Source of the DNA: Balamuthia mandrillaris
Lineage: Eukaryota
Length of the DNA: 64,000 nucleotides
Direction of reading: 5' to 3'
Assembly (NCBI GenBank): GCA_031835245.2
Contig: JAVKOQ020000038.1
Location: forward strand, 124,001-188,000
Position numbers and translations under genes: made by a program. Positions 17,116 to 38,060 of the stretch are shown here, piece after piece. How positions within the stretch are numbered: the first letter of the stretch is position 1; every line of letters begins with the position of its first letter. A model generated the notes under the pieces. The model was not told where the DNA came from and made no database searches. It worked only from the letters and a program-made list of their open reading frames with translations.

Positions 17116-17152
<37 letters not shown>

Positions 17153-17508
17153 CTTCTTTTTTCTTTCTTATTCTTCTTATTCCATTTCCCTATCGAATAT
17201 AATCAGTTGGATGCCTGGAACCAGAACTGTTGATAGACTGTAAACTTCCAGAAAGATACTCGCGTCTCATCCGAGTGCCACGGAATGCGTCGCTGCAAGA
17301 GCTCATTCATAGAGTGGAGCTCAAGTTGGGCGATCTCTTCTATCCCGTCATTCTCAAGTATAAGGACTCGGAGGGAGACCTCGTTTCGTTGCTTTCAGAA
17401 GCAGATTATTTTGCAGCTCGTACTTTGTCTTCAGAACCGGGCGCACTTCGTCTTTACGCGTTTCCCTCTTCAACCCAACAACAGAATAATTCTTCAACAA
17501 AATCATCT
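16142..17508 (+). CDS. PH-SAM-PB1 domain signalling protein, 5' part, cut by the viral insertion
   Basis: PH (RRAWCKLTDGLLLLF...DWQKEL), SAM (WGPEDVALWLE...DDLKELGMKKLGHRLRFLRAL), PB1 (ILKYKDSEGDLVSLLSEAD); the frame runs into the element terminus. Confidence 0.75.
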
Positions 17509-17509
17509 C

Positions 17510-17541
17510 AATTTAGCAGGCAGAGTGCCGGTAGTGGACGG
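17510..17541 (+). repeat. Left terminal copy of 32-bp inverted repeat
   Basis: AATTTAGCAGGCAGAGTGCCGGTAGTGGACGG is the exact reverse complement of 37934-37965. Confidence 0.95.
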
Positions 17542-17791
17542 TCTTAGCTGCAGGCCACCCTCGCGCTCAACCTGTGCCTCCGCCCCGCGGGGCAACAGGC
17601 AAACCAACGGCAGCAGGTCCTCGCCGCCACCGCCGAAGTGGACGGTCTTAGAAACAAGTAGGTCAGAGGAAAAAGAATTTAATAAATAGAAAAAAGAAAA
17701 AGAGAAAACACTTCGGTTGTGGAGAGCGAAGAATGGTGTGATGACAGTTGCTACAAAGTGAAGTGGCTATTTTTAAGCTACTACTGGTAGC

Positions 17792-18280
17792 TTATTGATA
17801 AGCGTTTTCCACGTCCTTTTCATTAGGAAGTGGTTTGTTGTCTTCTTCTGGCTTGGGAAAACTTCTATGGTCCTTCAAGAGTATGTATCTTTGCTTCAGT
17901 CCTTCGAGATCACTTCTTGTGTGTTCAAGGTCCATCTTCAAGGAGCTTGACTCCTCTCGTAATCGATAAACAAGCCCTACAAGCACTCCAACTGCACCTA
18001 TTAATGTAGCCGTGCCTTGGAAGTATCTTGCTCTCGCACCGATTTTAGCGCTGCGCAATAAGGCTTCACGGTTCAGCTCCGCAACCTTTAGTGAAGTGGT
18101 TGTGTGAACCTCTGCTATCTTTGTGTTGTAAGCCCCTGCTATGTGAGCCGCCTTTTCATGAGCTGTTTGCCCACTTGCTAGAGCACAGGTTTCCTCTGCC
18201 ATTTGACCGTCGTCCTCACAAAAAAGCCACGTGATAATTTTTGGCGACATGGGAAACCTCCATTTTTTAGGACTCCTCAT
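17792..18280 (-). CDS. Hypothetical protein with one TM segment and a coiled coil (element-borne; start may be internal)
   Basis: 162-aa intron-less ORF; LIGAVGVLVGLVY hydrophobic stretch followed by heptads. Confidence 0.5.
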   Translation of the reverse strand: MRSPKKWRFPMSPKIITWLFCEDDGQMAEETCALASGQTAHEKAAHIAGAYNTKIAEVHTTTSLKVAELNREALLRSAKIGARARYFQGTATLIGAVGVLVGLVYRLREESSSLKMDLEHTRSDLEGLKQRYILLKDHRSFPKPEEDNKPLPNEKDVENAYQ

Positions 18281-18408
18281 AGTTATATATAACTATGGTA
18301 AATTGGTTTCCTGACAAGAATAGACATTTATTCCTGGCAAACGTTGACAGGAGAATTTCCTCTCTCTTTTTTTTTCGCAGTCCAAACCAACAACACACAA
18401 CACACAAT

Positions 18409-19413
18409 ATGGAAGGACGACAGGTCGGCCGAAAGAAGGCAAACGCCGCTGAGATCTTCAAGATGCTCCGCAAGTTAAACGACGCAGAATTTAGCGTGCT
18501 TTGCGAACTCCTCGGCACCGACGGTATTGACAATATACTGAACCTATTGACGCCCGAGCTCATCGAACAAGCCTGTGAGAAAGACAAAGCGAAGGATTCT
18601 TTGAAACGCCCTCACGCCGCTATGTCCGACGATGACCATGACTTCATGCGTTGGTACAACGAGCAGTACAAGTATGCCGAGCGAATAATGGCAGCCGGTG
18701 ATATCACGTATTTGGACGTTGTACCGCCGGCCCTCGAGGATGATCCGGGTAGCGACGAGGCGATTATGGCGGATCTCAGGAAGTTAGCTATGGTGAGGAA
18801 TGATTCGCAGACTCTGGCCAACATCTATGCCTCGAAAGTTGGGTATTACGTGGCGCTAGTGGCCGGGCTTAGGACGACTGATCCAGCCCGCGCTAGAAGA
18901 CTAGCCATCTTCCTCAGCGGTGGCCCTACGCCGATAGTTTCACAGTCGATGGTCCGCCGATATGTCAGCTACTACAATGATCTTAGGCGCTACCCCGCGA
19001 TCATCTATATGCCGTGCAGTTGGTGTACTTACACGACAAAGTATGCCAGCAAGTTCCGAGACTATGTTAGCAGAGACCCGGAGCATGCAAGCTTTTGGAA
19101 GCGCATTGGCAAAGAAAAGAAGAGGATCCGCTTAGCCAACGTTAGCCTGCAACCGACTGTAGCGATGGTACACCAAGAGATGAACCACGAGCAATGGAAG
19201 GAGTTTGATAAGAACCTGAAGAGCGGCGCTCACCCGACGTTAATCTCCTGCAACAAGATGAAGAGGACCGCACGCGCCGTCAGCGATACGCACCTGAATA
19301 AACTGATAGAGGAAGTCTTCTCGGCTAATATTTGTTATCAATTTGTTGTAAAGATGCGCCTTCCAATACATTCGGTGCCCTATATGGAATTCTTGTTCCG
19401 GCGGCATTGTTAA
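18409..19413 (+). CDS. Hypothetical protein (element-borne)
   Basis: Long intron-less ORF with ATG at 18409 after a CA-rich leader; 3' end overlaps the helicase gene antisense. Confidence 0.6.
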   Translation: MEGRQVGRKKANAAEIFKMLRKLNDAEFSVLCELLGTDGIDNILNLLTPELIEQACEKDKAKDSLKRPHAAMSDDDHDFMRWYNEQYKYAERIMAAGDITYLDVVPPALEDDPGSDEAIMADLRKLAMVRNDSQTLANIYASKVGYYVALVAGLRTTDPARARRLAIFLSGGPTPIVSQSMVRRYVSYYNDLRRYPAIIYMPCSWCTYTTKYASKFRDYVSRDPEHASFWKRIGKEKKRIRLANVSLQPTVAMVHQEMNHEQWKEFDKNLKSGAHPTLISCNKMKRTARAVSDTHLNKLIEEVFSANICYQFVVKMRLPIHSVPYMEFLFRRHC

Positions 19414-21807
19414 CAATGTTGTGAAGAACTGACTGTTGTCCGTCGGCTCAACAAACCTATTAATGCGGCCGTGTGTCCTCGCAACACTGTCGTATGTTGT
19501 TGGCCGCCGGCAAGCACCCATATACTTGATGAAGATGTGTTGTCCGCCGGGTATGTCCCTTACACGGGCCAACATCTGATCGCACATCAGGAAGTCATCT
19601 TTGTCAGTGAGAAAGTAAGCAAACAACCGCCGGAATCTTGGCAACTCATAGCTAACCCCGCAGCTTACAGTGGAAGTATAGATGAGGATATCAACATCAC
19701 TCCAGAACTCAGCAACATTCTGCAGTTCCCGGCGCTTCTCCGAATCTGTATCCGAATTGTAGAGAGCGATGCGGGCGGCTGGATTCAGTTGCCGGAACTC
19801 TGCCGCAATAGCATTCGTCTGTGTGCGGCTAGTCATCACAACAACGATCGGAGAGTTATGCGCATTGAGAACTGCGGCTGTCAACTGTTCGCGCCAATGC
19901 TGTTCATTAGTGTACAAGTAGTCATTCTTCCGTTGTTCACGCCACGTATTGAGGTGCAAGCAGATGTTCTGTGCTCCTTCAGCCGGAGGAGGCCGGGCTT
20001 CAGCTAACAGGTGAAAAGTGCGGATAGTTGCATTGGCATCCAGCGCCAGTACTTGCTCTGCTGCGGTCAACAAATACCGGAAGTTTGACCAACAAGCGCC
20101 TAATGTGTATCGTCGCACTGTCTCTGGATTGTCGATCTGAGCAAACACAGCTTCAGATTCGTCCATTATCAAGATATACGGTTGGCCTGCATCAATCCGC
20201 AGCCTGTGTAAAGACTCAAACTGGATAATAACTCTTGGCGCTGTAATCTTCTTATCTACGCTGCGATAGTCAACGAATTCCGGCAGTTTAGCGGCAAGTG
20301 CTGATGTGAATGATTGCCTAAAGGAAACAATTACAACGTTAGTGCTTGCGGGCTGTTCGGCAATATAGCGCAACAATTGCTTCGTTTTGCCAGTGCCCTT
20401 AGGAGAGCGAATAATCAAAGTATCATATTTACCTTGCTCGAAATCATACGGCTGCACTTCCGGCGATTCATATTCAACCCTAGCAAACTGCGGCGGGATT
20501 TCGTATATGTTTTGGATGCCGGGTTTGGCTCCTTGGCGCCCATTGATAGCTCTATTAACAAACTCTTGCAGACTGAAGTCGCCGGCAGTGCGATTAGTTG
20601 AGTTCTCAATCAACCAACGCAATGTCATCTTTGCCAATGTGTTCAGCGCCGCATCAGCTTCCAACTCATCCAACTCATCTTCTTCAATATCCTCGAGCCC
20701 GGCGGCTTTGTCAAGACTGATTCTCTCCCATATCTGATTATTTCTCACAGGATCATAGTCCGGAGAGTCAACACTCCAGCGGTGCAGTAAGAAGACAGGA
20801 GAGAAGTCCGGTAGTAAACAAGTGGCCGCCTTAATCTTATACACAAGCCGGCGCCAATTCTTCCCATGCTTGTGATAGTCCGGCAAGAAAGCAATCAATG
20901 TATCGATGAAGTCCGGCGTAATGTTGTATGTTTTGCCGTCGAATGTTAGCTCTTTAGTCTCTGTGTTGTATGTTGTGTCATCACAACGGTTGAGATATTC
21001 TTCATGTTGTTTTCGCTTCACATGGAAGCCCCGCCGGATCTTCTCATTAACTTTATCTAGCTCCGATTGTCTAAGCCGCCCAGTAATCGGCGCATAAATC
21101 GAGTATCTAGCCAAATGTTGTTGGATTTCACCGGCAGTAGTTGCCCGCGGCTCATTCCAAGGAACGTACATATCTGGCCGGCCATCTATCAACCGCACTT
21201 CGCCGTTGACTACTTTCGCGGAGTAAGCAGAGCGCAAGCCCGCCGCATTAATATCAAAAGCATCATTCCATACTTTCTGGTCAACATCTGGGTCCAAACA
21301 CATCTCATATAGCGTATCCCTTATGTATTCCAGTACATACTTTCGGTATTGTTTGGCCGGCACACGGACAACCCTGCGTTCTCCAGTATTGTCAATGAAG
21401 TAGAATGTATGCTCGTGGATTCCGGTATTCAAAATGATGTGGAGCTTGCCGCTGATGTCGTTTTGCAACACCAGCACGTTATCCGGCCGAGAACGGTCTT
21501 CAAACATCCATTCAAGCATGTCTTGAAGCATTGAGATGTGGTCCTCACCGGTAAGCCGCATGTCGATATCAATATACAAGCGCGTGGACAAGCGGGTACG
21601 ATAAGGGAATTCATTCAACATAAACAGTCCGGGGTACTTCTCAAACAGTTCTTGAATGCCATAGGAGCGGGCGAATTGGTCAAAGTAATCATAATCAAAC
21701 CTGTCGAAGATACCGGTTGGATAAAATGCCATGTGAGAGTAGTTGTTCTTGCTGGCAGACATACGATCGTTGCGCAAAAGATAGGGAGTGCGAATTAATT
21801 TTGACAT
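19240..21807 (-). CDS. AEP primase fused to UL9/origin-binding-protein-like SF2 helicase
   Basis: AEP-like motifs RLYIDID, GKLHII, FD..AGLRSAYSAK; helicase motifs IRSPKGTGKT, VSFRQSF, IQFESLHRL, LIMDESE, ALDAN, LIYTSTVSCGVSY, QMLARVR. Confidence 0.85.
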   Translation of the reverse strand: MSKLIRTPYLLRNDRMSASKNNYSHMAFYPTGIFDRFDYDYFDQFARSYGIQELFEKYPGLFMLNEFPYRTRLSTRLYIDIDMRLTGEDHISMLQDMLEWMFEDRSRPDNVLVLQNDISGKLHIILNTGIHEHTFYFIDNTGERRVVRVPAKQYRKYVLEYIRDTLYEMCLDPDVDQKVWNDAFDINAAGLRSAYSAKVVNGEVRLIDGRPDMYVPWNEPRATTAGEIQQHLARYSIYAPITGRLRQSELDKVNEKIRRGFHVKRKQHEEYLNRCDDTTYNTETKELTFDGKTYNITPDFIDTLIAFLPDYHKHGKNWRRLVYKIKAATCLLPDFSPVFLLHRWSVDSPDYDPVRNNQIWERISLDKAAGLEDIEEDELDELEADAALNTLAKMTLRWLIENSTNRTAGDFSLQEFVNRAINGRQGAKPGIQNIYEIPPQFARVEYESPEVQPYDFEQGKYDTLIIRSPKGTGKTKQLLRYIAEQPASTNVVIVSFRQSFTSALAAKLPEFVDYRSVDKKITAPRVIIQFESLHRLRIDAGQPYILIMDESEAVFAQIDNPETVRRYTLGACWSNFRYLLTAAEQVLALDANATIRTFHLLAEARPPPAEGAQNICLHLNTWREQRKNDYLYTNEQHWREQLTAAVLNAHNSPIVVVMTSRTQTNAIAAEFRQLNPAARIALYNSDTDSEKRRELQNVAEFWSDVDILIYTSTVSCGVSYELPRFRRLFAYFLTDKDDFLMCDQMLARVRDIPGGQHIFIKYMGACRRPTTYDSVARTHGRINRFVEPTDNSQFFTTLLTMPPEQEFHIGHRMYWKAHLYNKLITNISREDFLYQFIQVRIADGACGPLHLVAGD

Positions 21808-21915
21808 TTGAAATTTTATATCCTGTATAGAAAAACGGAGTGAGGAGCCGTATTTTTTTGGAGGTGGTATATACTGGTGGTAATAGAATTTTTAATCCGA
21901 AATATTAATTAAGAA

Positions 21916-22173
21916 ATGGCAACAACACAACCGAGCTACATCATTAAAGAATGCTGGACAACTGAAAAAAGAAAGTGACGCAATGGAGAAGAATTTGTGA
22001 TGCAACGCCGGCGCAAGTATAAGGTGTTGGCGCCTGAGAGTAAGCATAAGTTGAGCCCGGATGTCGTTGCAGAGGTGCGGCAAGCATTGGCGAATGGCGC
22101 CACAAAGCGGGAGATCGTTGAAGACTATGGCATTAGCTTCTATAAGCTACAGAAGTATATTGTTGCCAAATAA
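21916..22173 (+). pseudogene. Small HTH DNA-binding protein with premature TGA at 21976
   Basis: ...EKRK*RNG...LSPDVVAEVRQALANGATKREIVEDYGISFYKLQKY. Confidence 0.6.
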
Positions 22174-22220
22174 TGTTGGCTGGCAGATGACAACATAGTA
22201 AAAGCAACAATATTTTTTTG

Positions 22221-22381
22221 GCTGGAGAGTAGCCTTCATCCGGCAAAGCCCAGAAGAATGAGAGATAATAACTGTTTATGACTTCTACCGGCCTTCTTCA
22301 GTTAGATGTAGCCTTCATCAATCTATGGTTATATAATCTGTTCTGACGAAGGCTACATTTATTGAAAACCTATATCCACTC
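22221..22381 (+). repeat. Intergenic palindromic repeat, copy 1
   Basis: Arms ATGTAGCCTTCATCA (22306-22320) and TGACGAAGGCTACAT (22344-22358), 23-nt spacer containing TTATATAA, third GTAGCCTTC box at about 22229. Confidence 0.95.
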
Positions 22382-22563
22382 ATATGTTCTTGCGGGCTTT
22401 CAACAGTTTTGTCAACCATTTCGGTATCCTTGGCCGCCGATATTCCCGCTGTGTAGCCAACATATCCTCGTAAATCAGGTCGTGTTTTGAAAACCCACTC
22501 AGCAACCCACCGCCAAAGTATTGTCTATCACAATGCCGATTGTTTTCCATTTGCAGTATAATA

Positions 22564-22914
22564 ATGCGTGGACAATTATTTTCGTATTTAATGATTTATG
22601 CCAACTGTAATATACCTCAATTTCAACAAATGATTCCAGAACACGCCGCATTACTTAACCAATTCATCGAGACACACTTCGGCTCTCAGCAACTACAACC
22701 TAAGCCGGAGCCATCGCTGGTCAAATGACAAGCAGCGGCACAAGCCGGCATTGACTTGGATGCACTGCTGCCAGAAGTCATTGAAGAATGGGCGATTGTT
22801 CTCATGGAAGAACTAATGGACGAGCCAAAGTTGACTAAAGTGGAGCGCGGTGTGTTCCAACATATTGTCCGGAGCTACACGCCTTATCTGCTTATTCTGC
22901 CAGCGAACAATTGA
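22564..22914 (+). pseudogene. Hypothetical viral ORF with premature TGA at 22726
   Basis: Frame continues plausibly past AAA-TGA-CAA; AGTATA motif upstream. Confidence 0.5.
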
Positions 22915-22969
22915 ACAATGGCAATATTTTTTTGTTATAAAATTTTTGTCCACATTAATATAGCTGATA

Positions 22970-23173
22970 ATGGAATCCGACAAGCAAACAAGAATCAACG
23001 ACTGTTTGAAATCATCTGCGTTTTGCTTACAGCATCTGGCAAACAAGCAAGCACAGTTGCTGAAGTCTTTGCAGGAATTATACGATGTAGCAGAACAGTT
23101 GCAGTTAAATATAAAAGTGTTAACAGATAATTTTGAGGAAATGCAGAGTGAGTTCAAGCAATCACGAGAGTAA
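22970..23173 (+). CDS. Small coiled-coil protein
   Basis: 67-aa ATG ORF preceded by a leader duplicated in front of the next gene. Confidence 0.55.
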   Translation: MESDKQTRINDCLKSSAFCLQHLANKQAQLLKSLQELYDVAEQLQLNIKVLTDNFEEMQSEFKQSRE

Positions 23174-23217
23174 TTATTTTTTTGTTATAAAATTTATATC
23201 CACTAATATATTCAACA

Positions 23218-23541
23218 ATGGATCCAGTCATAGACGAACGTGTTGACTTGTTTGACTTGCCAGATGAAATCAAAGTGATGATTACAGACTATCTTTGGGC
23301 AGACTTCCGCCGGCATAAGTGATTGATGAAGCCAACACTAATGCAAGTGCAGATATGGGAAGAAGTAAGGAAAAGGCTTGAGATAGCAATGAAGAGAAAT
23401 GAGCGAAGCCAGCCAGTGCACTTTGAACATGAGGCAGACTATTATGAAGAATATCACCAGCGGGTAAAAAAGATAGATTACTGGTGGACAGAGCAACAGA
23501 AGTACTTGCGGGATCAGTATGGTGAAAATATTCCACCGTGA
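23218..23541 (+). pseudogene. F-box-like small protein with premature TGA at 23320
   Basis: MDPVIDERVDLFDLPDEIKVMITDYLWADFRRHK*LMKPTL. Confidence 0.55.
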
Positions 23542-23732
23542 TTTATGAAATGTACACTACAGCAAGGAATTATACAAGGATTTCTGCGGCTAGTGCAGAA
23601 AAATTAATTTTTGCTATCATTGCAGCACCCTTCACCGGCATGTTCTGAAAGCCAATCATCATAATATTATGACACTAGGTATGTAGATTTGGATGGCTGA
23701 TGATAGCAAAAAGTATTATTTTTTTGTGTGGT

Positions 23733-23895
23733 GAGTGGCCATAAGAATTTCAATGTAGCCTTCGTCAGAACAGATTATATAACCATAGATTGATGAAGGC
23801 TACATTTAGTAGAAGTCCACCAATGTCATTGTCAAACAATCGAAATCATTCTTATTTACTAATGCCGCCAGATGAAGGCTACTCTCTCCGGCCAA
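23733..23895 (-). repeat. Intergenic palindromic repeat, copy 2 (inverted)
   Basis: Arms 23753-23767 and 23791-23805, third box at about 23874-23883. Confidence 0.95.
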
Positions 23896-23896
23896 C

Positions 23897-25231
23897 TTAT
23901 ACATAGCTGCATGATGTGTTGTAAGTTATGCTGGTCATTGCAATGTCCACAGCATCACTTCAATCAGTTGTGGCATTATAAGTGCAGGCAAAGTCTATCA
24001 ATCCGTTAGCCTGTATATGAATGCAGCAATACATGTCAAAACCGGCATGACTGCATTGAGCCATGAAATATTGGTTAACACTCGGCTGATATTCCAACGG
24101 CAAAGCAGATTGAGAAACTAACCTCGCAAACGGAGTAGGAAGGCCGTTGAAGAGGATTGACTCAGTCCAAGTTATCATAACCTGATCACCAATCCTTGTT
24201 AACTTATGGTCAACATTCAAAGCCTTTGTAACGCTGGCACCATCGTGGTAAGATACAACCATATCATCTGCTATCATAATTCCAACTGTTCCAGCATCAT
24301 TCACATCCGGGATTGTATAAGTTCTGTCGACTGATGGCGCGGTTCCGCTAAAAGTGTAGTGTGTCCCAGCAGGATCATCTGAAATAGCCAACCCACTCAT
24401 AACCGCTGGCAGATAATTGATTGGCTGCGATTCTGTGAATGAACCACCGGTGCTCATGCTTGCTTGTGTGAAGGCCCATTCATCATTCATTTCATCCCAC
24501 ATCATGGTGGCATTCGTGGGGATCAACAGATAACTATCACCGGTTGTTGTTAACGTGAAGTCCGGATATGTGTTGGCAATTGTGGCAATCTTCTCTATCC
24601 CATCATAATCAGTGATCAACGCCACTTTGCCGGATTCTGCGCCAGAAGTCATCTTCAAATACCAGCCGATGTAATAATCATCTACGCTGCTACTAGCTGC
24701 ATCATTAAGATGTTGCCAGTTGCCACCAGCCGAAGAAGGCTCAGAGAGAGTTGAGGCAATGCCTGGGCTAACACTGTCAACATCTCTGTGGGCAACCACG
24801 CCGCTGTTGATATCTGGCGTTTTGTCTGTGTTGAGCTCTAAGAAATTGCCTGAGAATCCATCGGCAGTAGTGGACTCATCGGCCCATTCAAGCCCGCTGC
24901 TATCCGATGCAACTTTGAGCACTTGTCCGGCTGCACCTTTTGCTAATATCACATCACTAGTGCCATCGTGAGTTAGCAAATCACCAGCGGCTGTTAGCTT
25001 CTCATCTTCAACCCACATCACAGCATTGCCGGCGGGATTGACAGCAAGAACTTGGCCACTGGTGCCCAACGGTAAGCGCAGGTGTTGTGAGCCGTCATGC
25101 ATGAGGAGATCACCGGCAGCAGAGAGTGGCAAGATGTAAGATGCAGAGCCAGAGCCTGAGGTTCCATAAACTGAAGTAGAGCCATTAAGAACTCGTGGCC
25201 CAAGAGGTGTATTATAAGAATCAGTTGACAT
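23897..25231 (-). CDS. Putative fibre/spike (receptor-binding) protein; probable premature TGA at 23962
   Basis: Two AAGDLLxHDG...GQVL...W repeats and DDYYIGWYLKMTSG...ITDYDG, resembling phage/giant-virus fibre modules; frame stays open 20 codons past the TGA to a TAA. Confidence 0.6.
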
Positions 25232-25291
25232 TGTTGTTGTGTTGGTGAGAATACACACAGTATACTTAAGCAGGCAAAAAAATAAATGAGC

Positions 25292-25918: not shown

Positions 25919-25952
25919 TTATTATAGCTGAGATAAAAAATAATGCGATGAT

Positions 25953-26327
25953 TTAATGATACAAACACTGCCCATACTTGATGCACTTCTGCCGGATAAT
26001 TGCCTGCCAGAGAAGGCGCTTCTCATGTTGGCGGTAGTCCCTCAGATTGTGAGACAAATGTCTAACGAAGTTGAACCATATATCAAAATTTTCTTCAAAG
26101 TTTATGAAGCCTGTTTGCTCTCTGAGATACTTAGCTAATTCCTTTTCTTCCTTATCCATTTGTGAGCCATTGGCCATGCGGCATCAGGCTGCGTGGTGAA
26201 CATTGGAGATGCCCTTAACAGGAAACCTGGCTCGCTTGTTCATGTACCAAGAGTATAACAGGTAGTCTTTGATCTCGTTCAGCGCAGGGGTAAACTTGCG
26301 GCGATGTTCGTCATGCAAATCCAACAT
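25953..26327 (-). pseudogene. Paralog family protein with premature TGA at 26186
   Basis: MLDLHDEHRRKFTPALNEIK...HAA*CRMANG...FDIWFNFV; shares H...FTPxL..I and WFN.V with neighbouring ORFs. Confidence 0.5.
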
Positions 26328-30065: not shown

Positions 30066-30094
30066 AAGTATCACAGTGGGTGGTTATCTTTTTT

Positions 30095-30355
30095 TCAATA
30101 AATGTAGCCTTCATCAATCTAGGTTATATAACATTGTCGAATGAAGGCTACATTGGTGGACATAACTTTTTCAATAAATGTAGCCTTTGTCATATAGCGA
30201 GTGGCCATAAGAATTTCAATGTAGCCTTCATCAGAACAGATTATATAACCATAGATTGATGAAGGCTACATGTAACTGAAGAAGGCTGGTAGAAGTCATA
30301 AACTTACAATATCTCTCATTCTCCTTGCTTTGCTGGATAAAGGCTACTTTCAGCT
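30095..30355. repeat. Intergenic palindromic repeat, copies 3a (+, core only), a half-site and 3b (inverted, full)
   Basis: Palindromes at 30102-30153 and 30219-30271; third box at about 30340-30348. Confidence 0.93.
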
Positions 30356-30378
30356 GACACAAAAAAATAACATACCTC

Positions 30379-30774
30379 TTACTCTTCGGCCTCCTCACCG
30401 CTCTCATCCTTGGCTACATTGTCATCATCACTATCAAACTCCTCCGCATAATGTTGGAAGACATACTTGGACAACTCGCCGGCTTGCGGTTTACTTACTG
30501 GCTTCTCTTTTTTCGCGGCAGCACCACTCTTCTTCACCAGAGCTTGCTTACTTGCGGCTTTCCTAACCAGCGCCTTCTTTGCTGGAGTCTTCTTTACTGG
30601 CGCCTTCTTGCTGGCTGTTGTCTTCCTAACTGCTTTCTTTACCACCAGCAATGGTTCCACAATAGGTTCTGGTTCAGCAACAACTTCTTCACTTACCTCT
30701 TTCACTGACTTGTTGCCTAGAGCATCCAACATATGCTGCAAGAACTTATGTGCTAGTTCATCTGAGAACTCCAT
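30379..30774 (-). CDS. Histone H1-like Lys/Ala-rich protein with acidic ends
   Basis: KKAVRKTTASKKAPVKKTPAKKALVRKAASKQALVKK. Confidence 0.65.
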   Translation of the reverse strand: MEFSDELAHKFLQHMLDALGNKSVKEVSEEVVAEPEPIVEPLLVVKKAVRKTTASKKAPVKKTPAKKALVRKAASKQALVKKSGAAAKKEKPVSKPQAGELSKYVFQHYAEEFDSDDDNVAKDESGEEAEE

Positions 30775-30827
30775 TCACTCCAACTATACTTAAGCCGCCA
30801 AATAAATCTTGGCAAAAAAATTTTTGA

Positions 30828-31295
30828 TTATTCTCCTTCTTCTTTCTTCTTTCTCTCAACACCCATGTACTCCTTGAGAATATAGTTGATTTGGTTCTGC
30901 TGCATTTGCTCTAATGTTTGCCTGCTCAGTAGTACTCGCCCCTGGAAACAAACAGGCATCCCAAGTGCCGCAATAATTGACTCCTTCAGTAGGCCATACA
31001 CAAGATGTATCTTTGAATCCTTGGAATGCGTGATAAAGACCAACACATGCGCATGCAACCTCTTTTGCCGGGCTGATTTCCACTCAATTGATGATGCTAA
31101 CTGGAATGAATAAATAGGATCCCGGGTCTTACCCCACTCAAATATCTGAAGCATATCTTCTGCATTCTCTTCAGAGAACACATCCTGTATAACCCGCGTA
31201 AACTTTCGCACAAGCCGGCAGCTCTCTGGCGTGTTCTTGACCTTCTTGTTTGTATTGATGAATATGTGCCACTGACTAATTGCATAATCAGTCAT
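30828..31295 (-). CDS. HUH-superfamily (Rep-like) endonuclease
   Basis: Ordered motifs WHIFINTN (I), E...RLHAHVLV (II, HUH), NYILK (III, YxxK) in 155 aa. Confidence 0.7.
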   Translation of the reverse strand: MTDYAISQWHIFINTNKKVKNTPESCRLVRKFTRVIQDVFSEENAEDMLQIFEWGKTRDPIYSFQLASSIEWKSARQKRLHAHVLVFITHSKDSKIHLVYGLLKESIIAALGMPVCFQGRVLLSRQTLEQMQQNQINYILKEYMGVERKKKEEGE

Positions 31296-31359
31296 TTATT
31301 TTTCGTTCGTTGGTTTTCTCACTCCTATAGTATACCAGACAAAGAAAAAGTGAACAACA

Positions 31360-31554
31360 ATGACTATGTACTGTCCCTGTTGTAAATGAAAGACGGCTGA
31401 CTCCGGCAAACCAATTGTGAAAGTAGCAGCAAACAGCCGGTGATATCAGTTAATGAAGTGCGGAAGCTGTGGTGCAAGGAAGTCGAAGTTCCTATCTGTG
31501 CGTGGTGGCAGGTCAAAAAAAAAGAGAGTAATTCCGGGCAATCACTACTACTAA
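31360..31554 (+). pseudogene. Small zinc-ribbon protein (DUF5679-like) with TGA at 31387 and 31441
   Basis: MTMYCPCCK*KT...ANSR*YQLMKCGSCGARKSKF. Confidence 0.65.
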
Positions 31555-32249
31555 ATCATCCAACTAACCTACAGGAAGGTGAAGGGTTGGCCGACATTTA
31601 CAATGCAGTGAAGACAACGCTGCAGCAGATGTTTGGCGGTCTCAGGTTGAATGCTCCACCGGCAACCCGCCGGCTTGTGGAAGCCAAAGGAAACGTGGTG
31701 ATTACTTCAATGTATGTTGTGCAAAGCCCAATCCAACAAGCAATAACTACTCTCGGCAATATCCTAACACTAGGAGACTTATCCCGAATGCAGCACAAGT
31801 TGAATTACAACAATCTATATCATTTGTATCTTATTCTTCGGCTCCAAACCAGTGAAGTTATCCAGCTTGAGAAGAATCAAGTGGTAAGCGCCCGGCTGGC
31901 CAGTGAAGCCGACCTACACCTGCATAATGGCAGCGCAATGCAGGTTAATGTAAGAGGCCGGCCAACACTTGCCACAATGCTTACCCGCACTTTGAAGGCC
32001 GTGGGAGAACGCCAGATGTGGCTGTATAGTGCCACTAGATACAATTGCCAACTGTTCATACATGACATACTTGCGGCCAACGGAATGCTAACAGCAGAGT
32101 TAAAGAACTTCATTATTCAGGACGCAGCACAACTATTGAAGGGCCACCCACGTATCCGAGGCCTTGCTAAACTTGCAACGGACTTAGCCGCAAAGTGGTA
32201 TATGGCTCAGGTTTCTGAGGTTCCACTGGAACGCGTGGGCTTTCAATAA
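31515..32249 (+). CDS. Permuted papain-like (PPPDE/LRAT-type) hydrolase; probably joined to the upstream Zn-ribbon by a -1 shift
   Basis: His (LYHLYL) precedes Cys (YSATRYNCQLF); EGEGL site lies before the first ATG. Confidence 0.55.
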   Translation, partial: KKKESNSGQSLLLNHPTNLQEGEGLADIYNAVKTTLQQMFGGLRLNAPPATRRLVEAKGNVVITSMYVVQSPIQQAITTLGNILTLGDLSRMQHKLNYNNLYHLYLILRLQTSEVIQLEKNQVVSARLASEADLHLHNGSAMQVNVRGRPTLATMLTRTLKAVGERQMWLYSATRYNCQLFIHDILAANGMLTAELKNFIIQDAAQLLKGHPRIRGLAKLATDLAAKWYMAQVSEVPLERVGFQ

Positions 32250-32309
32250 TTATTTATTTATTGATTTTTTTATGTCTGATATAGTATAGTGTATTAGTTC
32301 AGCGCGAAG

Positions 32310-32678
32310 ATGACGGAAATTATTGATCAAGTCCGGGAATTATGCCAGCAGAACCTTAGCAATAATGAAATATGTGAGAAATTAAACCTTACTGTGTGGC
32401 AACTGAAAAAGATTATGTTCTCCAACCATATCCAGAAGCCGCATAAAAAGAAGCATGTGTTTGATGAAACCAGCAGCAAGCAAGCGTATATTTTAAATGC
32501 CCTCAGTGTGAAGCCAAGCGTGATTTGTGAAATACTTAACATTGGCTATCAAGTCTACCTGCGGATGGTTGAAGCCGGCAAGACAAGCTCCGCGGATATA
32601 ACAGAAGAAGATATTAACACTGCTACCCGCAGCATTGTTGCCCGCTTGGGTGAGTTGGGCAAGCCTGCCCGTAAATAA
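32310..32678 (+). CDS. HTH-containing protein
   Basis: LSNNEICEKLNLTVWQLKK and KPSVICEILNIGYQVY: two HTH-like units. Confidence 0.6.
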   Translation: MTEIIDQVRELCQQNLSNNEICEKLNLTVWQLKKIMFSNHIQKPHKKKHVFDETSSKQAYILNALSVKPSVICEILNIGYQVYLRMVEAGKTSSADITEEDINTATRSIVARLGELGKPARK

Positions 32679-32738
32679 TTACGATTTTTTTCTTTTTTGG
32701 CTGCTTTAGTATAGTACCTGCATTCAGTAAACTAAACA

Positions 32739-34356
32739 ATGTCCGTGAAACAACTCGACCCGAGAATGACCCAAGAGTGGGATCTCTTCAGCAGCGATGT
32801 CGTTGATGAGACTACCACCTCTTTCGAATATGTGAGGTTCCCTTACTTAGCAAGCGGCGCCTCTAACCAAATCCCGGCGACTGGTGATATCCAGATTCAG
32901 ATTCATGATATGGCTTCCTGGTTGTTGATTAATAAAGCGTTTTTGGAAGTGAAGTATAAGATTACCAAGTCTGATGACACTGCTCTCTCAGTACTTCCCA
33001 CTGACAAGGCTACTACCACTCAGTTAGTTGGTTTGACTAATGGCGGCTGGAATATCTTCAGAGAAATACAGTGGAAGATCAATAACAAAACTGTTGGCGA
33101 GGTTGATAACGTAGGTTGACTGCCCAGGGAAAGCAGCCACTGCCCCTTGCGAGGCAGCACGGCGGGACGACGGTGTTGCCACCGCCGCCCAGACCTAGCT
33201 GCAACCCAACCCCTTCTGTATACGTATTGTCACTAATGTGATGAATCTCGTATGCTGGAGTGAAGACAATGTGCAGTCTCTCGGCTCACGTGAGGGCTTC
33301 TTCCTGGAGACCTATGGGGGTGATGGTGTTAGTCCTCATGAGTTTTTGAGAGATCAAACCGCAAGAGTGCAAGCCTATGATGCAGCCACTGCTGGCTCTG
33401 TGGTGGCTGGCACTTTCACCACTTTGTGGGATAAGATTGGTAATTGCTCTGATTCCTTTGCCAAACGTGTGGCGCGTTCTGCTTCCACTGCTGGCCCAAC
33501 TAGTAAACATACCACGTTGTTCCTTCCTATTGCTGATGTCTGCTGATTCTGGTATCATCAACGTGCGGCATGGCGCGGAACTACTCACACTCTAGTGTTG
33601 AGGCAGAATGATGCCGCATTGGCTCTTCAAGGAACTACTTTTACATACGGTGGTGTTAGTTATGCTAGCTCAACTGACTTCAAACTGGTGATTGATGAGC
33701 TCAACCTGTGGATTCCTAAGATCCAGCCCAGTTTGCAAGTGCAGGCAATGCTTGACAAACAGCTCGCCGCTGGTACCTCAAAGACCGTTGTGTATAATGA
33801 TTTGTACATCTATCGCGGCTCTCCAACCACCAGCACTGGCAAACAAACACTGCCAATCACTAGCTCTATTCGTAAGCCTAAGCGTATGTATGTTGTGTTC
33901 CAAGATGCCACAAGGCTCGCCAGAGCTACTACAATGAGCAGGAATAAGGCTGTATTTGATCATCTGAATATGCAATCTATTCACGCAGTTGTTAACGGCC
34001 GGAGTGTACCTGAGAGTGAATACCAACCTTACTTCGGTGCCTCTAACAAAAGCTATGTGCGATTGTACAATGCATATTTGGAAGCCGGAATGCATTGCAA
34101 TGATAGTGAGTCTGGCAGTGTCGTGACATTTGAAGACTTCAAGAACTTGTATCCTATCTTTGTCTTCGATTGCGGCTACAACAAGGGTGATCGTGCTGCG
34201 TTCAGTTATCAGACAGCGGCTGATAACCATCTTGAATATACTCCTGGCAGTGGTGCAAAGGCATCATTTGTGCCGATTGTTATCATCGAGGCGGAGGCTG
34301 AGATTGAGTACAAGGGTGATGGTGAGTGCTTACAAATCGTTGACAACCGCCACTAA
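32739..34356 (+). pseudogene. Double jelly-roll major capsid protein (~500 aa), interrupted by a 109-bp insert and a TGA at 33544
   Basis: KAFLEVK, IFREIQWKINN, DELNLWIPKI, KPKRMYVVFQ, AVFDHLN...VNGRSVP, FEDFKNLYPIFVFD: Polinton MCP pattern. Confidence 0.9.
33115..33223 (-). mobile_element. 109-bp GC-rich structured insertion in the MCP gene
   Basis: Removal restores DNV-G-IVTNVMNL; minus strand forms two GCAA-loop hairpins; GT microhomology at the ends. Confidence 0.75.
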
Positions 34357-34415
34357 ACAACTAATAACCTACCAATATTTTTTTGTCTGCTATAGTATAA
34401 GAAGAAACCAGCAAG

Positions 34416-34922
34416 ATGCCGTATGATAATGTACCTGTTCATTTAACAGAGCAACAGCAAAAGTCCATTGGTAAGGCTATCAAAGCGGGCTGAGGTGTTA
34501 ATATTTGGCTTACAAGAAAGCAACTGAGGGCCGAACCGAATGCCGCACTGCTGCTTACCAAAACACAAGCAAAGCGGCTTAAACGATCGGCAAAGGCCGG
34601 CAAAGGCTTAGTGTTGAAGCTTAGTAAGACACAATTGGTGAGAATGAAGCCACAAGTTGGGGGATTCTTACCAGTTCTAGCAGCCTTCGTTGCGCTGATT
34701 CTCGCGGGTGTTGCTGATAAACTTATTGATAAAGGCATTGATACAGCAACCGGCGCATTGGGCAAACTATTTGGGGGAAATGTGAGAAGAAAGATAAAGC
34801 CAAGGAAAGGCAGAGGATTACATCTAGGATACACAATGGGCTCGCAAAACAGACATTCCATACGGAACCCGGCCCAATCTGGTGGTTGTGGTAAGTGTAA
34901 AAAAAAAGGTTCCACGCTCTGA
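34416..34922 (+). pseudogene. Virion core/membrane-active precursor with GGFL site; TGA at 34491
   Basis: LTEQQQK..KAIKAG*G...LLLTKTQ..RL...LKLSKTQL...GGFLPVLAA: Maverick-type small structural protein. Confidence 0.7.
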
Positions 34923-35365
34923 GCAACTTTGAGTTGGTAGAGATGTTAGCAGATTCGCCCTCATTTGCTGGCGTGTTTGCCCGCGATGAAGCCAAGAATG
35001 TGAAGACGAAAGACATTAACTTACCGGCGAGTTTTATCTTCAACTATGACAAACACTCACAACCGGGTTCACATTGGGTCGCTGTATATTGCGAGAAGAA
35101 CAGCCCATTTGTTGAGTACTATGATTCGTATGGTGTTGTTCCACAGCTGGAGCTTGAACGATTTCTGCGGAGGATTGCGCCCAAGCGCACAATATTGTAT
35201 CCTTCCATGCAGACACAAACGGACAAAACAGTTCTCTGCGGCTATTACTGTGTCCTCTACATTCAGCAAAGAGACGCCGGTAGAACACCGGCAGATATCA
35301 TCACTGTGTTCGATCAGGAACCAACAGCGGCCAATGAAGCTATCGTGCGGGATTATTTTACATGA
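34901..35365 (+). CDS. Adenain-like maturation cysteine protease; frame opens at an A9 run with no ATG before LSNF
   Basis: LSNFEL, FAGVFARD, FNYD...GSHWVA, YYDSYG, Q.Q....LCGYYC (H-D-Q-C set). Confidence 0.9.
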   Translation, partial: KKRFHALSNFELVEMLADSPSFAGVFARDEAKNVKTKDINLPASFIFNYDKHSQPGSHWVAVYCEKNSPFVEYYDSYGVVPQLELERFLRRIAPKRTILYPSMQTQTDKTVLCGYYCVLYIQQRDAGRTPADIITVFDQEPTAANEAIVRDYFT

Positions 35366-35416
35366 ACTGTTTTTATGTCGCCTGTAGTATAATACTTAGT
35401 GAAACCGGCAAGAACA

Positions 35417-35833
35417 ATGTTGATAGACCGTAGAAACATACACAGGTATGGTCCGGCGCACTTGCAGCGCGGGGGCTTCCTGAAGAACTTGATAAGAAAA
35501 GGAAAGAACACGCTGAATCCCAAAGGATTAGTTGGCACTTTGGGAAAGGAATTGTTAGGCGTTATCAAACCTATTGCAACCGGCAAGATTGAACAACTGG
35601 CTGACAGTGCGAAGTCTACTGCCAAAGGCAAAGTGCGCGAATTGCTCGGCGTGAAGTCTGGCAGTGGTATGCGAATGATCGGGTCCGGTTCTGGCAAGAA
35701 GAAGCCGGCAAAGAGTAAGCCAAGTGCCAAAGCAACGAAGAAGCCAACGCCAAAGAGTCGCGCACAGTTTGATAGCTTTCTAGGCGCCTCAATGAAGAAG
35801 AAACAGTCTGGTAAGGGACTGCGAATGATGTAA
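35417..35833 (+). CDS. Basic core protein precursor
   Basis: Lys-rich; RGGFL, GSGM and GKGL protease-site-like motifs. Confidence 0.7.
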   Translation: MLIDRRNIHRYGPAHLQRGGFLKNLIRKGKNTLNPKGLVGTLGKELLGVIKPIATGKIEQLADSAKSTAKGKVRELLGVKSGSGMRMIGSGSGKKKPAKSKPSAKATKKPTPKSRAQFDSFLGASMKKKQSGKGLRMM

Positions 35834-35877
35834 ATGTGGCGGCGGTAGTAAGCATACATCGATGTAAATATTTTTTT

Positions 35878-36036
35878 GGCCGGAGAGTAGCCTTCTTGCG
35901 GCAAAGCAAAGAAGAAGAGAGGAATTTAACAATTTACTAAGTTTATCTACCTTCCCCGAAATATGTAGCCTTCGTCAATCTATGGTTATATAACATTGTC
36001 TGACGAAGGCTACATTGAAATTCTTATATCCACTCG
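35878..36036 (+). repeat. Intergenic palindromic repeat, copy 4
   Basis: Perfect arms 35963-35977 and 36001-36015; third box at about 35887. Confidence 0.95.
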
Positions 36037-36104
36037 CCGGTATTATCTGTCGACCGATAACACGTAATCGTTTTATGTCGGCCTTAGTATAGTATACTGT
36101 GAGA

Positions 36105-37358
36105 ATGAAAGACTACTCTCAGTACAAATTCACAGATGAAGCATATGATGCCGGGTTGGAATACTTACAAACAAATACTTTGCCGGATCTCTTGCCGAAA
36201 GAACAGCGGCGTTTTGCTGATAAGTGGCGGCACTTCCGGCTTCAAGAAGGAACAGAAGACACCATTGTGGTGAAGTATGATGGCCGGATTGTAGTACCCG
36301 CTGGCGCTATTGATCGTGTGCTCGGCGAACTGATGGCAAGCCTGGCGACAATGGCATACGGCCGGGATAAGTTATATAAGCGCGCTGTGGAGTCATTTAT
36401 CGGCATATCTCGGCGGGATGTTGCGGCATACTTGCAGCGGAATCATACTAACCAATTACATCAACCGATTCGTAAGATTGCAGTGAAACAACCTATTCGG
36501 GCAAAGGCGCCGCATGAACGCCTGCAAGCGGATCTCGTGGATGTCAGTGCACTGCGCGGGTTTAACGACCGATACAATTTCATACTTACGGCTATCGATG
36601 TGTTCAGCAAATATGCGTGGGCGTTCCCAATCACCAAGAAGACTGCGGCGAATGTGGCCCGTTGGTTGCGGCCATTATTGGCGGAACAGCAGCCTAAAAT
36701 CCTGCAAACAGATAACGGCGCAGAGTTCGTCAATCATCTGCTGCGTGGCGCCCTGGAAGAGAATGGAATCGCACACATTACATCAAAGCCATACAAACCA
36801 AACTCACAAGCCGTTGTTGAGCGCTTTAACGGCACACTCAAGCGCATGCTCTGGCGGCATATGACCGCGAGTGGCACGAAGAATTGGAAGCGAGTGTTGC
36901 CTGCGGTGATAGACAACTACAACAATAGCTATCACTCAACAATTGGCGCAACACCGGCGGAAGTCCACTTGGCGCCAACACGGCGGAGATTACGAGCGGC
37001 CCGGCGTGGTATCAATAAGCAAGCGGCGGAGATGGTTGCGGCGGGAGAAGAAGAGAGAGAAGACTTGCCCGCAGTGCAGAGGCGGAGTGTACTGTTGGAG
37101 AAGTTTGCCCGAAAGACAGAGAAGTGGCGTAAGAGTTATGTGAGGAATTTCTCGCATGATTTGTATGAAGTAGTGCGGGTACATCCGGCAACCAAATACA
37201 TTGCAGAGCGCTATTCATTACGGCAGAAGTATGAGTGGCAGCAACGGGAACGTAATTACTTGCCGGTATTCGCCGAAACAGAGCAACGGCCCTTCTACCG
37301 AGATGAAATCCTGCCGGTGCAAATAAGCGACTACAGCGAATTATTTACGGAGACGTGA
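36105..37358 (+). CDS. Retroviral-type (rve, DDE) integrase
   Basis: QADLVDV, ILTAIDVFSKYAWA, LQTDNGAEF, VVERFNGTLK, YNNSYHSTIG.TP; ORF intact. Confidence 0.95.
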   Translation: MKDYSQYKFTDEAYDAGLEYLQTNTLPDLLPKEQRRFADKWRHFRLQEGTEDTIVVKYDGRIVVPAGAIDRVLGELMASLATMAYGRDKLYKRAVESFIGISRRDVAAYLQRNHTNQLHQPIRKIAVKQPIRAKAPHERLQADLVDVSALRGFNDRYNFILTAIDVFSKYAWAFPITKKTAANVARWLRPLLAEQQPKILQTDNGAEFVNHLLRGALEENGIAHITSKPYKPNSQAVVERFNGTLKRMLWRHMTASGTKNWKRVLPAVIDNYNNSYHSTIGATPAEVHLAPTRRRLRAARRGINKQAAEMVAAGEEEREDLPAVQRRSVLLEKFARKTEKWRKSYVRNFSHDLYEVVRVHPATKYIAERYSLRQKYEWQQRERNYLPVFAETEQRPFYRDEILPVQISDYSELFTET

Positions 37359-37393
37359 AGAATTTGTGAGCATAAGTATAGTAAACAAGCAAG

Positions 37394-37678
37394 ATGGCAG
37401 ACGTGCGCATGTGTTGTGATTTGGCGTCGAGTGATGAAGAAGGCGGCCAACAAGCCGGCAAGACTGCCGTAAAGAGGTGGATATGTTGTAAGCTGCGGCT
37501 AAAGTATTTGTGGGCGCTAATACAGTTAGCGGTGAGTCTGCTAGTGTTGTTGTTCTGCTTTGTACGTATTTGGTTTGCGATCAACGACACAGAGAAATAC
37601 GTTTGGATATCATTGATTAGTGGGATTGTTGGCTATTATCTGCCTTCGCCGCTGTCGGGCAACCTGTTGGAGAAGTAG
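37394..37678 (+). CDS. Small two-TM membrane protein
   Basis: Two hydrophobic helices ending VWISLISGIVGYYLPSP. Confidence 0.7.
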   Translation: MADVRMCCDLASSDEEGGQQAGKTAVKRWICCKLRLKYLWALIQLAVSLLVLLFCFVRIWFAINDTEKYVWISLISGIVGYYLPSPLSGNLLEK

Positions 37679-37730
37679 ATTAAATTCTCCGGGCACTGTT
37701 TGCCAGGATCATTTGTCTTTTTTTGTCGGC

Positions 37731-37905
37731 CAGTGGTTATAAGAATTTCAATGGTCGTGGAACGACGTGCGAAGCACTAGCCTTCGTCAGAACAGATTAT
37801 ATAACCATAGATTGACGAAGGCTACATCTAACTGAAGAAGGCCGGTAGAAGTCATAAACAGTTATTATCTCTCATTCTTCTGGGCTTTGCCGAACAAAGG
37901 CTACT
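37731..37905 (-). repeat. Intergenic palindromic repeat, copy 5 (inverted), with a 24-bp double-hairpin insert
   Basis: 37778-37892 is the reverse complement of 22241-22355 with one mismatch; insert at 37754-37777. Confidence 0.95.
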
Positions 37906-37933
37906 TTTTGTCCACAACCAACGCACACTCTCG

Positions 37934-37965
37934 CCGTCCACTACCGGCACTCTGCCTGCTAAATT
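37934..37965 (-). repeat. Subterminal copy of 32-bp inverted repeat
   Basis: Exact reverse complement of 17510-17541, about 90 bp inside the right end. Confidence 0.95.
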
Positions 37966-38060
37966 AGGTACGAGAGTGGACAAATTAGCAGGACAAAAAA
38001 CACGCTAAGTCGTTGTGAAACCGTATTGTGTACTGTACGGCGTAGTGGACGGTCTTATCT

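Follow-up and report, generated by a model that had tools for sequence, protein, structure and literature searches.

A Polinton-like virus in a host gene of Balamuthia mandrillaris, with one exact end likely cut by its own HUH nickase

Genes of the element

The window analyzed here, a stretch of 64,000 nucleotides from Balamuthia mandrillaris (contig JAVKOQ020000038.1, positions 124,001 to 188,000 of the forward strand), contains a 20.4-kb Polinton-like virus with genes for a capsid protein, a packaging ATPase, an rve integrase, a UL9-like helicase and a stand-alone HUH nickase (Table 1). The helicase is the sole open reading frame (ORF) longer than 430 residues. It matches structures of herpes origin-binding proteins (E about 1e-13), and its N terminus was judged, purely by eye, to carry primase-like motifs. 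The double jelly-roll (DJR) capsid, the A32 ATPase and the cysteine protease were recognized by weak but concordant matches; P0014, the single relative found here (52%), passes the PF21738 cut-off. The 30 matches of the capsid among the Atlas clusters fall into overlapping groups (PF21738, 10; no common family, 18; V20-type, 2; NCLDV-type, 5). With tblastx the capsid gave no match to the capsid genes of contigs L037 or L038, and the integrase is 30% identical to that of L037, which bears an HUH gene. IMG/VR scans seeded with a capsid fragment, the integrase, the capsid alignment and the alignment of close HUH proteins yielded no relative, and an exact-identity look-up of eight ORFs of the window gave no match. 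An ORF of 372 residues at 18295 has no family assignment. One RNA run, with 8 reads, was left out of the analysis.

Table 1. Features of the locus with their positions in the window
Feature	Position	Strand	Evidence
Host SAM-PB1 gene, part upstream of the insertion	16831..17509	+	Pfam SAM and PB1
36 nt identical to the distal tip of the right-end fold in its inverted ("flop") form	17510..17545	+	sequence match
Captured host fragment from another locus, 89 bp, 73% GC	17546..17634	+	contigs of runs X1, X3, X10
Third end-motif copy, sharing 13 identical nt with the right end and continuing into viral sequence	17635..17649	+	motif comparison
Inferred unit-length viral genome, 20,407 bp	17650..38056	.	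bounded by motif copies
UL9-like origin-binding SF2 helicase, 855 aa	19240..21807	-	PF02399, E 1.1e-24
Internal hairpin repeat, copy 1	22309..22355	-	repeat comparison; folding
Internal hairpin repeat, other copies	23756-23802, 30222-30268, 35966-36012, 37778-37824
Internal hairpin repeat, variant	30099-30155
A32-like packaging ATPase, split over two frames	27582..28513	-	PF04665, E 0.00097, below curated cut-off
Stand-alone Y1 HUH endonuclease, 155 aa, open frame	30828..31295	-	alignment, structure model
DJR major capsid gene, with frameshift and stop codons	32739..34356	+	PF21738, E 5.3e-5, below cut-off
Probable capsid-maturation cysteine protease	34943..35365	+	weak match to S273R, E 0.0022
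rve integrase, open frame, 417 aa	36105..37358	+	PF00665, E 1.5e-14
Right-end fold, candidate rolling-circle origin	37934..38056	+	folding and repeat comparison
Right-end fold, outer arms	37934-37944 / 38042-38052
Right-end fold, inner arms, then TCTT	37955-37965 / 37982-37992
Host SAM-PB1 gene, part downstream of the insertion	38057..38491	+	51/59 residues identical to P0012 205-263

The HUH-type gene postulated in a preliminary description of this DNA is present. Its product carries the motifs H81-x-H83 and Y138-x-x-K141. In an alignment of nine sequences (eight of ten matches plus the window ORF, which replaced P0001; the repetitive P0005 of 1312 residues was left out) the Tyr and Lys are invariant and the full HxH is found in seven, the relative P0002 lacking this stretch as annotated. 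A structure model reached a pLDDT of 81.5, compared to 36.8 for a single-sequence model. Foldseek placed SIRV1 ORF119 at rank 4 (probability 1.00, E 3e-4) with the highest TM score among the first rows; this match of folds is modest, its Z of 7.9 being shared by unrelated ferredoxin-like folds, and is not decisive by itself. Pfam REP matched below its cut-off (E 0.025), and no match was found among PDB sequences or phage proteins. Judged by sequence and model, the protein thus appears to possess the features of the Y1 Rep class, namely motif I, HxH and YxxK on a Rep fold.

The internal hairpin copies, a repeat family that the preliminary description does not mention, each sit in an intergenic repeat of approximately 170 bp, and one of them folds with a z of -5.24. 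Dispersed hairpin repeats also occur in both HUH-bearing IMG/VR contigs, and the HUH protein might act on these internal hairpins instead of the right end. An alignment of distant HUH proteins retrieved two viral and five metagenome loci from IMG/VR and metagenomes, without similar ends; the end motif described below is unconserved in all seven HUH-bearing metagenome loci (best 9-11 of 14 bases). Two contigs with an identical HUH protein were considered as two insertions and rejected: they are probably one locus seen twice, since on each of them the SAM gene lies at an accession offset of 9-10.

Host gene and ends of the insertion

The two flanks are parts of a single host SAM-PB1 gene from which bases have been lost, as shown by the empty allele, represented by the uninterrupted protein P0012, which continues into the frame of the right flank. 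P0012 holds 28-31 extra codons before that frame resumes, and the insertion therefore deleted at least 83-92 nt of the gene. The annotated protein P0011 reads into the element and then stops, ending in element-derived residues. Contigs of the empty allele, which the preliminary description had suggested looking for, were found in three of three contig runs, where they align through 17511 and then leave the window; the one from X3 is near-identical to the window up to that point and represents the uninserted haplotype. The bases 38057-38065 may be host or filler; host origin is demonstrated from 38066 on. The tetranucleotide ATCT, previously noted on both sides, is indeed present at 17505-17508 and 38057-38060. 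We reject it as a target duplication, as the empty allele shows loss of host bases instead, and a rejoining of the flanks at ATCT is not supported.

The exact 32-nt inverted repeat reported earlier stands: 17510-17541 is the reverse complement of 37934-37965. So do the split direct repeats, with 17531-17546 identical to 38042-38057, and one mismatch in the 12-mer at 37981 compared to 17509. As a chance control, 2916 random pairs of equal-sized stretches were drawn inside the element. A direct match of at least 16 nt occurred in none of them and an inverted match of at least 32 nt in one, probably owing to the internal repeat family.

Folding, which had been suggested for the right end, holds there. 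Of 200 shuffles, none folds as well as the stretch 37934-38057 (z -3.14). For the wider 37915-38060 the result is weaker (z -2.10, 5 of 200 shuffles as good), and the minus strand of the latter folds weakly (z -1.51). Folding of the left end is not above chance (z -0.62 and -0.08). In run X1 a variant right end is still attached to the 32-mer; by hand comparison 3 of 30 bases differ, two of them in the loop and one making the inner arm pair perfectly. Scans of IMG/VR with the exact 16-mer gave 36 loci, none with protein similarity to the element, and with the inner-hairpin pattern two loci, neither of them related.

All three copies of the end motif close with GGTCTT followed by A, including a copy at 17637-17649 that is absent from the preliminary description. 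The positions of the genome join and of both outward junctions agree to within one base, at 4 nt past the stem. Five of the six bases after copy 1 match the first six at the right junction, so that these may be carried over and the junction may not be independent. The five shared bases after copies 1 and 3 could be carried over or could equally reflect a target preference.

The left 140 nt are a composite scar of three parts, with no native left terminus. The first 37 nt (17510-17545 and the following A) match the inverted isomer of the right-end fold in 37 of 37 positions with no further match on the 5' side, compared to a match of only 16 nt for the end of the non-inverted isomer; the joint with the host gene shares 2-3 bases (17509-17511). 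Host DNA starts at the base directly after motif copy 1. In X1, X3 and X10 there are contigs that match this 89-bp fragment and depart from the window on both sides, at 17546 and 17634. The third part runs from an end motif into viral sequence, from which we infer a circle or head-to-tail join, in agreement with the circular intermediate proposed earlier. Run X10 has no depth on 17635-17739, and X3 and X10 have zero depth on 17740-20400. The stretch 17650-17722 is called viral from adjacency and absence in X10 alone, and at 17723 a further X1 contig departs from the window.

The unit 17650-38055 has no terminal inverted repeat (TIR) longer than 3 bp, and a target duplication was found in none of six candidate end pairs; the earlier remark that the ends are unlike Polinton TIRs is borne out. 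An inner TIR element at 22228-37905 was also considered. It has a perfect end match of 9 bp and no duplication, and the repeat continues outward in other copies, so the candidate was rejected.

Possible routes of insertion

Because one end breaks off at the same short motif in three places, this exact end was likely cut by the virus's own HUH nickase at the predicted origin. That the right-end fold is a rolling-circle origin, that HUH nicking set the exact end and that template switching made the rest is a reading to which we assign about even probability; it is drawn from one locus, the single insertion site of the family examined. The free genome would be a 20.4-kb circle or head-to-tail multimer, whose join would be preserved at 17649/17650. 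The nick by the HUH protein would fall at GGTCTT, on either side of the A that follows, and the resulting free 3' end would be attached to host DNA or prime synthesis on it, initially at the source locus of the 89-bp fragment and later in the SAM-PB1 gene. The other side may have been closed by host repair with template switches, starting at 2-3 shared bases on the inner hairpin arm; a switch crossing the palindrome would leave the tip of the inverted isomer. One such switch suffices for this tip, and no natural flip/flop population need be assumed.

The main alternative, possible but rather unlikely, is half-site integration by rve, in which the right 3' end alone was joined to the host, host repair then gave rise to the deletion along with the captured fragment and inverted tip, and the HUH protein served replication only. 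The integrase frame is intact. This counts against the HUH reading, since rve, too, would link a viral 3' end to the host and do so with the same polarity. At both tips of 17650-38055 the terminal two bases match the dinucleotide ends of Polintons, and aberrant one-ended retroviral integration can be accompanied by deletions and foreign inserts. Elements bearing rve usually rely on it, according to the part of the source available (PMC8547959). Against half-site integration speak the lack of TIRs and duplications reported above, the extra T after the dinucleotide, which is kept at both outward junctions and is not host-derived at copy 1, and the left genome end, which is joined to an end motif and not to the host.

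Capture of a viral circle or multimer during general repair of a double-strand break in the host, with no viral enzyme acting on the host, seems to us improbable. The deletion, the 2-3 nt shared at the left junction and the insert templated by another locus are what repair typically produces, and junctions could cluster at the folded end because polymerases stall or switch there. Repair alone, however, does not predict that two outward junctions and the genome join agree within one base.

The motifs are very unlikely to represent a separate family of small host transposons with the virus nested inside. The variant right end in X1 carries a different inner sequence, as such a family might, but the related viral genes P0002 and P0014 offer a possible viral home for it. 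Arithmetic on binned depth (for X3 and X10, expected 7.16 and 64.2, observed 7.17 and 66.6) leaves no depth in X3 and almost none in X10 for 17512-17545. The motifs are thus unseen in two isolates in which the neighbouring 2.6 kb of viral interior is missing too, which argues against an abundant separate transposon.

Palindromic ends can mislead long-read assembly, the runs with the element may be the window's own sample, and no bridging reads were seen at the right junction or the 17545/17546 junction; a chimera or fold-back artefact at the hairpin nevertheless has a very low probability, given an X1 contig that spans 17301-17539 with zero differences at a depth of 36.8 (interior contigs 39.1-42.6, depth being a rough guide), flanks from one gene, and an annotated protein ending in element-derived residues.

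Comparison with known systems and implications

Zoravirus (VC102) and VC218 are described, in the part of the preprint available, as Polinton-like viruses of 20-30 kb with HUH, rve and direct or inverted terminal repeats (bioRxiv 10.64898/2026.06.19.733378). They share a capsid module, the HUH endonuclease and the rve integrase with the element, and this combination of HUH and rve is already known in such viruses. Their capsids are NCLDV-like; the nearest clusters here appear to be mostly PF21738-type, with NCLDV-type ones also among the matches, and a probable cysteine protease is present. That text describes no integration junctions or target sites (bioRxiv 10.64898/2026.06.19.733378), and our literature searches did not find the insertion signature seen at this locus.

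Mriyaviruses likewise combine a small stand-alone HUH protein with a helicase and no DNA polymerase, and rolling-circle replication has been proposed for them; they differ in having 35-45 kb and no integration genes. Their HUH proteins are also most like SIRV1 ORF119, and the accessible portion of that study identifies no replication origin (PMC11253617). With Maverick/Polinton elements and EMALE virophages the element shares rve, a DJR capsid, an A32 ATPase, a protease, a size of about 20 kb and insertion in a host gene. It differs by the loss of host bases, the absence of a terminal TIR pair and of a duplication, and a search for pPolB without a match (25 ORFs against Pfam, 29 against PHROGs). 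Where Maverick/Polinton group 1 is defined by TIRs and a target duplication of 5-6 bp, a deletion is found here.

For IS91 a single exact end, the lack of a duplication and one-ended events have been described (PMC13181058, in part), and Replitrons have short terminal direct repeats (PMC10288648, in part). The element resembles both in its one exact end, the missing duplication, the capture of host DNA, possibly carried-over end bases and a terminal direct repeat of 15-16 nt (15 nt and the following A). This is a likeness by features. Those elements have no capsid genes, and the IS91 transposase is larger.

For Helitron2, the source text at hand gives asymmetric inverted repeats of 8-15 bp, a 3' copy 20-30 bp from the end and a 5' hairpin (PMC3627910). 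An inverted repeat at the edge with a subterminal partner upstream of the fold, and no duplication, are common to Helitron2/Helentron and the element. The Helitron2 type suggested earlier was not confirmed: a Y1 HUH protein and a separate UL9-like helicase replace the fused RepHel, the 32-bp repeat lies 91 nt from the end, a 5' hairpin is lacking and the left repeat is scar. The internal complementary region of DIRS elements is a splint joining two ends into a circle. The likeness to it drawn in the preliminary description fails, as the order of the two halves does not allow them to splint a joined circle and neither a reverse transcriptase nor a tyrosine recombinase was matched in Pfam or PHROGs. 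Split repeats of the Ngaro type were rejected since their order, A1-ORFs-B1A2B2 in the section consulted (PMC8547959), differs. AAV junctions fall in the ITR hairpin of the flip/flop region, as far as the excerpt goes (PMC3918229). Rep-dependent AAV integration is similar in the HUH protein, a hairpin end with two isomers and a junction inside a hairpin arm; unlike the 4.7-kb linear single-stranded AAV with two ITRs, the element has a single fold and probably a circular 20-kb genome.

We suggest tentatively, and with considerable doubt, that a capsid-encoding 20-kb virus enters chromosomes by HUH strand transfer like IS91 and Replitrons, from a single flip-flopping hairpin origin and with a short target-motif preference, carrying host DNA between sites and leaving its rve unused. 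The mriyavirus/Zoravirus HUH family would then have its first mapped origin in this nick site. Rolling-circle replication of these viruses was inferred from the HUH gene alone, the portions available giving no origin or nick site (PMC11253617; bioRxiv 10.64898/2026.06.19.733378). The locus narrows the candidate nick to a single phosphodiester bond, which is testable with synthetic oligonucleotides.

Entry into host DNA by an HUH cut, if true, would be an undescribed route. In this isolate a SAM-PB1 signalling gene is truncated by the insertion on the major haplotype. Such viruses can reside in genomes without TIRs or duplications, so that their ends will be mis-called by screens based on these marks; they can also remove host DNA and carry it elsewhere.

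Terminal repeats and the right-end fold

The 32-bp inverted pair claimed in the preliminary description (17510-17541 and 37934-37965) is real and exact, and so are its 16-bp direct pair (17531-17546 and 38042-38057) and, with one mismatch, its 12-mer repeat. Among random equal-sized pairs within the element, inverted matches of at least 32 nt occurred in 1 of 2916 and direct matches of at least 16 nt in none of 2916. A further copy of the end motif at 17637-17649 matches the right end's final 13 nt exactly; all three copies close with GGTCTT followed by A.

The right end has the layout A, s1, b, loop, b', s2, A', TCTT. Its supposed foldability was borne out for 37934-38057, where none of 200 shuffles was equally good; with wider limits folding is less clear (5 of 200), and the left end did not fold above chance in the shuffle test. 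Two contigs of sequencing run X1 run outward from the 32-mer with an agreement of 0.95; compared with the window's right end, 3 of 30 bases in their consensus are different. This fits one window copy plus one variant with a perfectly paired inner arm; one further X1 contig has the inner 7 nt in common with the right end and diverges beyond. As the variant right end keeps the outer part, this part is element sequence, conserved in a second element.

The empty site and the left scar

Contigs of three runs, namely X1 (possibly the window's own sample) and, from two other studies, X3 and X10, track the left flank as far as 17511, beyond which they carry non-window sequence. In P0012, the uninterrupted host SAM-PB1 protein, 28-31 codons after the PB1 domain are absent from the window, and beyond them 51 of 59 residues match the right-flank frame. 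This continuity makes both flanks one gene, and the extra codons imply a host loss of at least 83-92 nt (more if an intron lies there). The flanking ATCT, earlier considered as the point of rejoining, is thus not a target duplication, since the empty allele (contigs of three runs and P0012) shows a deletion instead. Depth in X3 and X10 was zero on 17740-20400 and essentially zero on the end motif. In X1, where depth is a rough guide, one contig crosses the left junction without difference at 36.8, next to 39.1-42.6 for interior contigs and 10.7 for the uninserted haplotype.

Three parts make up the scar on the left side. When the stretch lying between the right end's outer arms is inverted, the resulting isomer ends b', s1', A', TCTT; the first part, 17510-17546, equals its last 37 nt, whereas the non-inverted form matches 16. 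Host sequence is joined to the isomer tip at the first inner-arm base with 2-3 shared bases. The second part, 17546-17634, is host DNA, matched by contigs of all three runs that depart from the window on both sides. This captured fragment of 89 bp falls within the host-deletion range of 83-92 nt, maybe by chance or through a fixed stagger. In the third part, the motif copy at 17637-17649 leads into sequence absent from X10. In our reading this is where the genome joins itself, as a circle or head to tail, defining a unit of 20,407 bp, but one other X1 contig departs from the window at 17723, which counts against this reading.

The six bases following the first left copy and the right-end copy agree at five positions (post hoc chance about 0.016, with five free positions). 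A target preference could account for this, as could bases carried over from a parent site; if the latter holds, neither host junction is independent of the other.

Gene content, predicted HUH protein and internal hairpins

A 20-kb viral element fills the span between the repeats. Among 25 ORFs (Pfam) or 29 (PHROGs) no match was found to pPolB, and none to a reverse transcriptase or tyrosine recombinase, so that the suggested DIRS membership fails; Helitron2 membership fails as well. The nearest protein matches carry the name Balamuthia mandrillaris; they comprise a spliced model that is identical, a relative at 62% and a capsid relative at 52%, so other members of the family exist in that species.

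Features of the element and of two HUH-bearing viral contigs (IMG/VR)
Feature	Location	Remark
UL9-like helicase	element	
A32-like ATPase	element	split over two frames
DJR capsid gene	element	disrupted by frameshift and stops
Cysteine protease, probable	element	
rve integrase	element	intact
155-aa ORF, putative Y1 HUH nickase	30828-31295	
372-aa ORF	18295-19413	overlaps helicase 3' end
~170-bp intergenic repeats	22200-22385, 23715-23890, 30099-30375, 35860-36050, 37712-37935	five, and a variant hairpin
Dispersed hairpin repeats	L037 9676-9789, 12793-12927; L038 855-1058, 6526-6646	AT-rich loops

The 372-aa ORF has no family, Atlas or PHROG match; a perfect 20-bp palindrome (18278-18297) parts it from a divergent upstream ORF. 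A fibre-like 423-aa protein at 23960-25231, with a weak tail-fibre PHROG match, is a probable virion spike, and a short T-rich motif that ends in a TAGTATA-like core, likely a promoter, precedes several viral genes (32264-36094). On the host side, a radical-SAM gene with a CxxxCxxC motif (41521-42732), by eye presumably viperin-like, lies 3.5 kb from the provirus. The ORF at 12757-13614 is built of 27-residue tandem repeats, which we take to be ankyrin-like, as in amoebae and their giant viruses. Tandem similar genes at 38881-39924 and 40142-40945 look glycosyltransferase-like by eye, with no Pfam match.

The 155-aa ORF found 10 matches among 1.84 billion representatives; all nine aligned sequences share Y138 and K141, and seven possess the full HxH. 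One relative, P0002, is annotated without the HxH stretch; the gene model may be at fault, or the copy may be dead. SIRV1 ORF119 ranked fourth among the matches of the predicted structure (pLDDT 81.5), with probability 1.00; the three ahead of it are ribosomal proteins of lower TM score. Its Z of 7.9 ties with unrelated folds, and rudivirus and CRESS Rep entries are among the viral matches. We predict a Y1 HUH nickase with good, if not complete, confidence.

The ~170-bp repeats lie mostly at gene 3' ends, with a strong stem enclosing an AT-rich loop; they may act as terminators, as HUH substrates or as origins for the UL9-like protein. Next to them stands a GTGG-core motif that also turns up in the terminal fold; one of its patterns occurs 7 times in the element and once in 43 kb of host flank. 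The repeats resemble the dispersed hairpins of both unrelated contigs, L037 and L038, and two hairpins terminate L037 directly after its rve gene.

Mode of insertion and related systems

We propose that the right-end fold may serve as origin of an HUH-driven rolling circle, and that an HUH nick would create the single exact end. This end would be joined to host DNA or primed there, and template-switching host repair could have produced the left scar along with the loss of host bases. The insertion structure is observed and the acting enzyme we infer; the model as a whole has, in our judgment, an even chance of being correct. HUH may instead target the internal hairpin repeats, five or six in number, and the terminal motif was not found in any of the seven HUH-bearing loci examined. 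One-ended integration by rve, the main though rather unlikely alternative, predicts the same polarity at this single locus; rve elements are described with TIR-bounded insertions and duplications (PMC8547959). General break repair fits more poorly than either of these and is improbable, and nesting in another transposon or an artefact, likewise poorer fits, are both highly improbable.

The following comparisons draw on the available parts of the sources. HUH and rve are already known together from Zoravirus and VC218, viruses of 20-30 kb (10.64898/2026.06.19.733378). For mriyavirus HUH proteins, too, SIRV1 is the best match, and the source names no replication origin (PMC11253617); the rudivirus Rep nicks close to a hairpin terminus (PMC5062984). 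As working analogies we use Helitron2 ends (PMC3627910, PMC5148889), Replitron direct repeats and fuzzy ends (PMC10288648), one-ended IS91 events (PMC13181058) and AAV hairpin junctions (PMC3918229). Membership in group 1 Polintons was considered and fails. Neither Balamuthia elements nor junctions made by HUH come up in the available text of PMC10120064 and PMC11296320. In mostly non-subscription literature, no title reported a Balamuthia Polinton or endogenous virus in the records available, and combining Polinton, HUH, rolling-circle, integration, termini and endogenous since 2023 returned nothing. The element is a real virus of known kind with an insertion signature, seen at one locus, that was not found in the literature searched, and its candidate nick site is directly testable.
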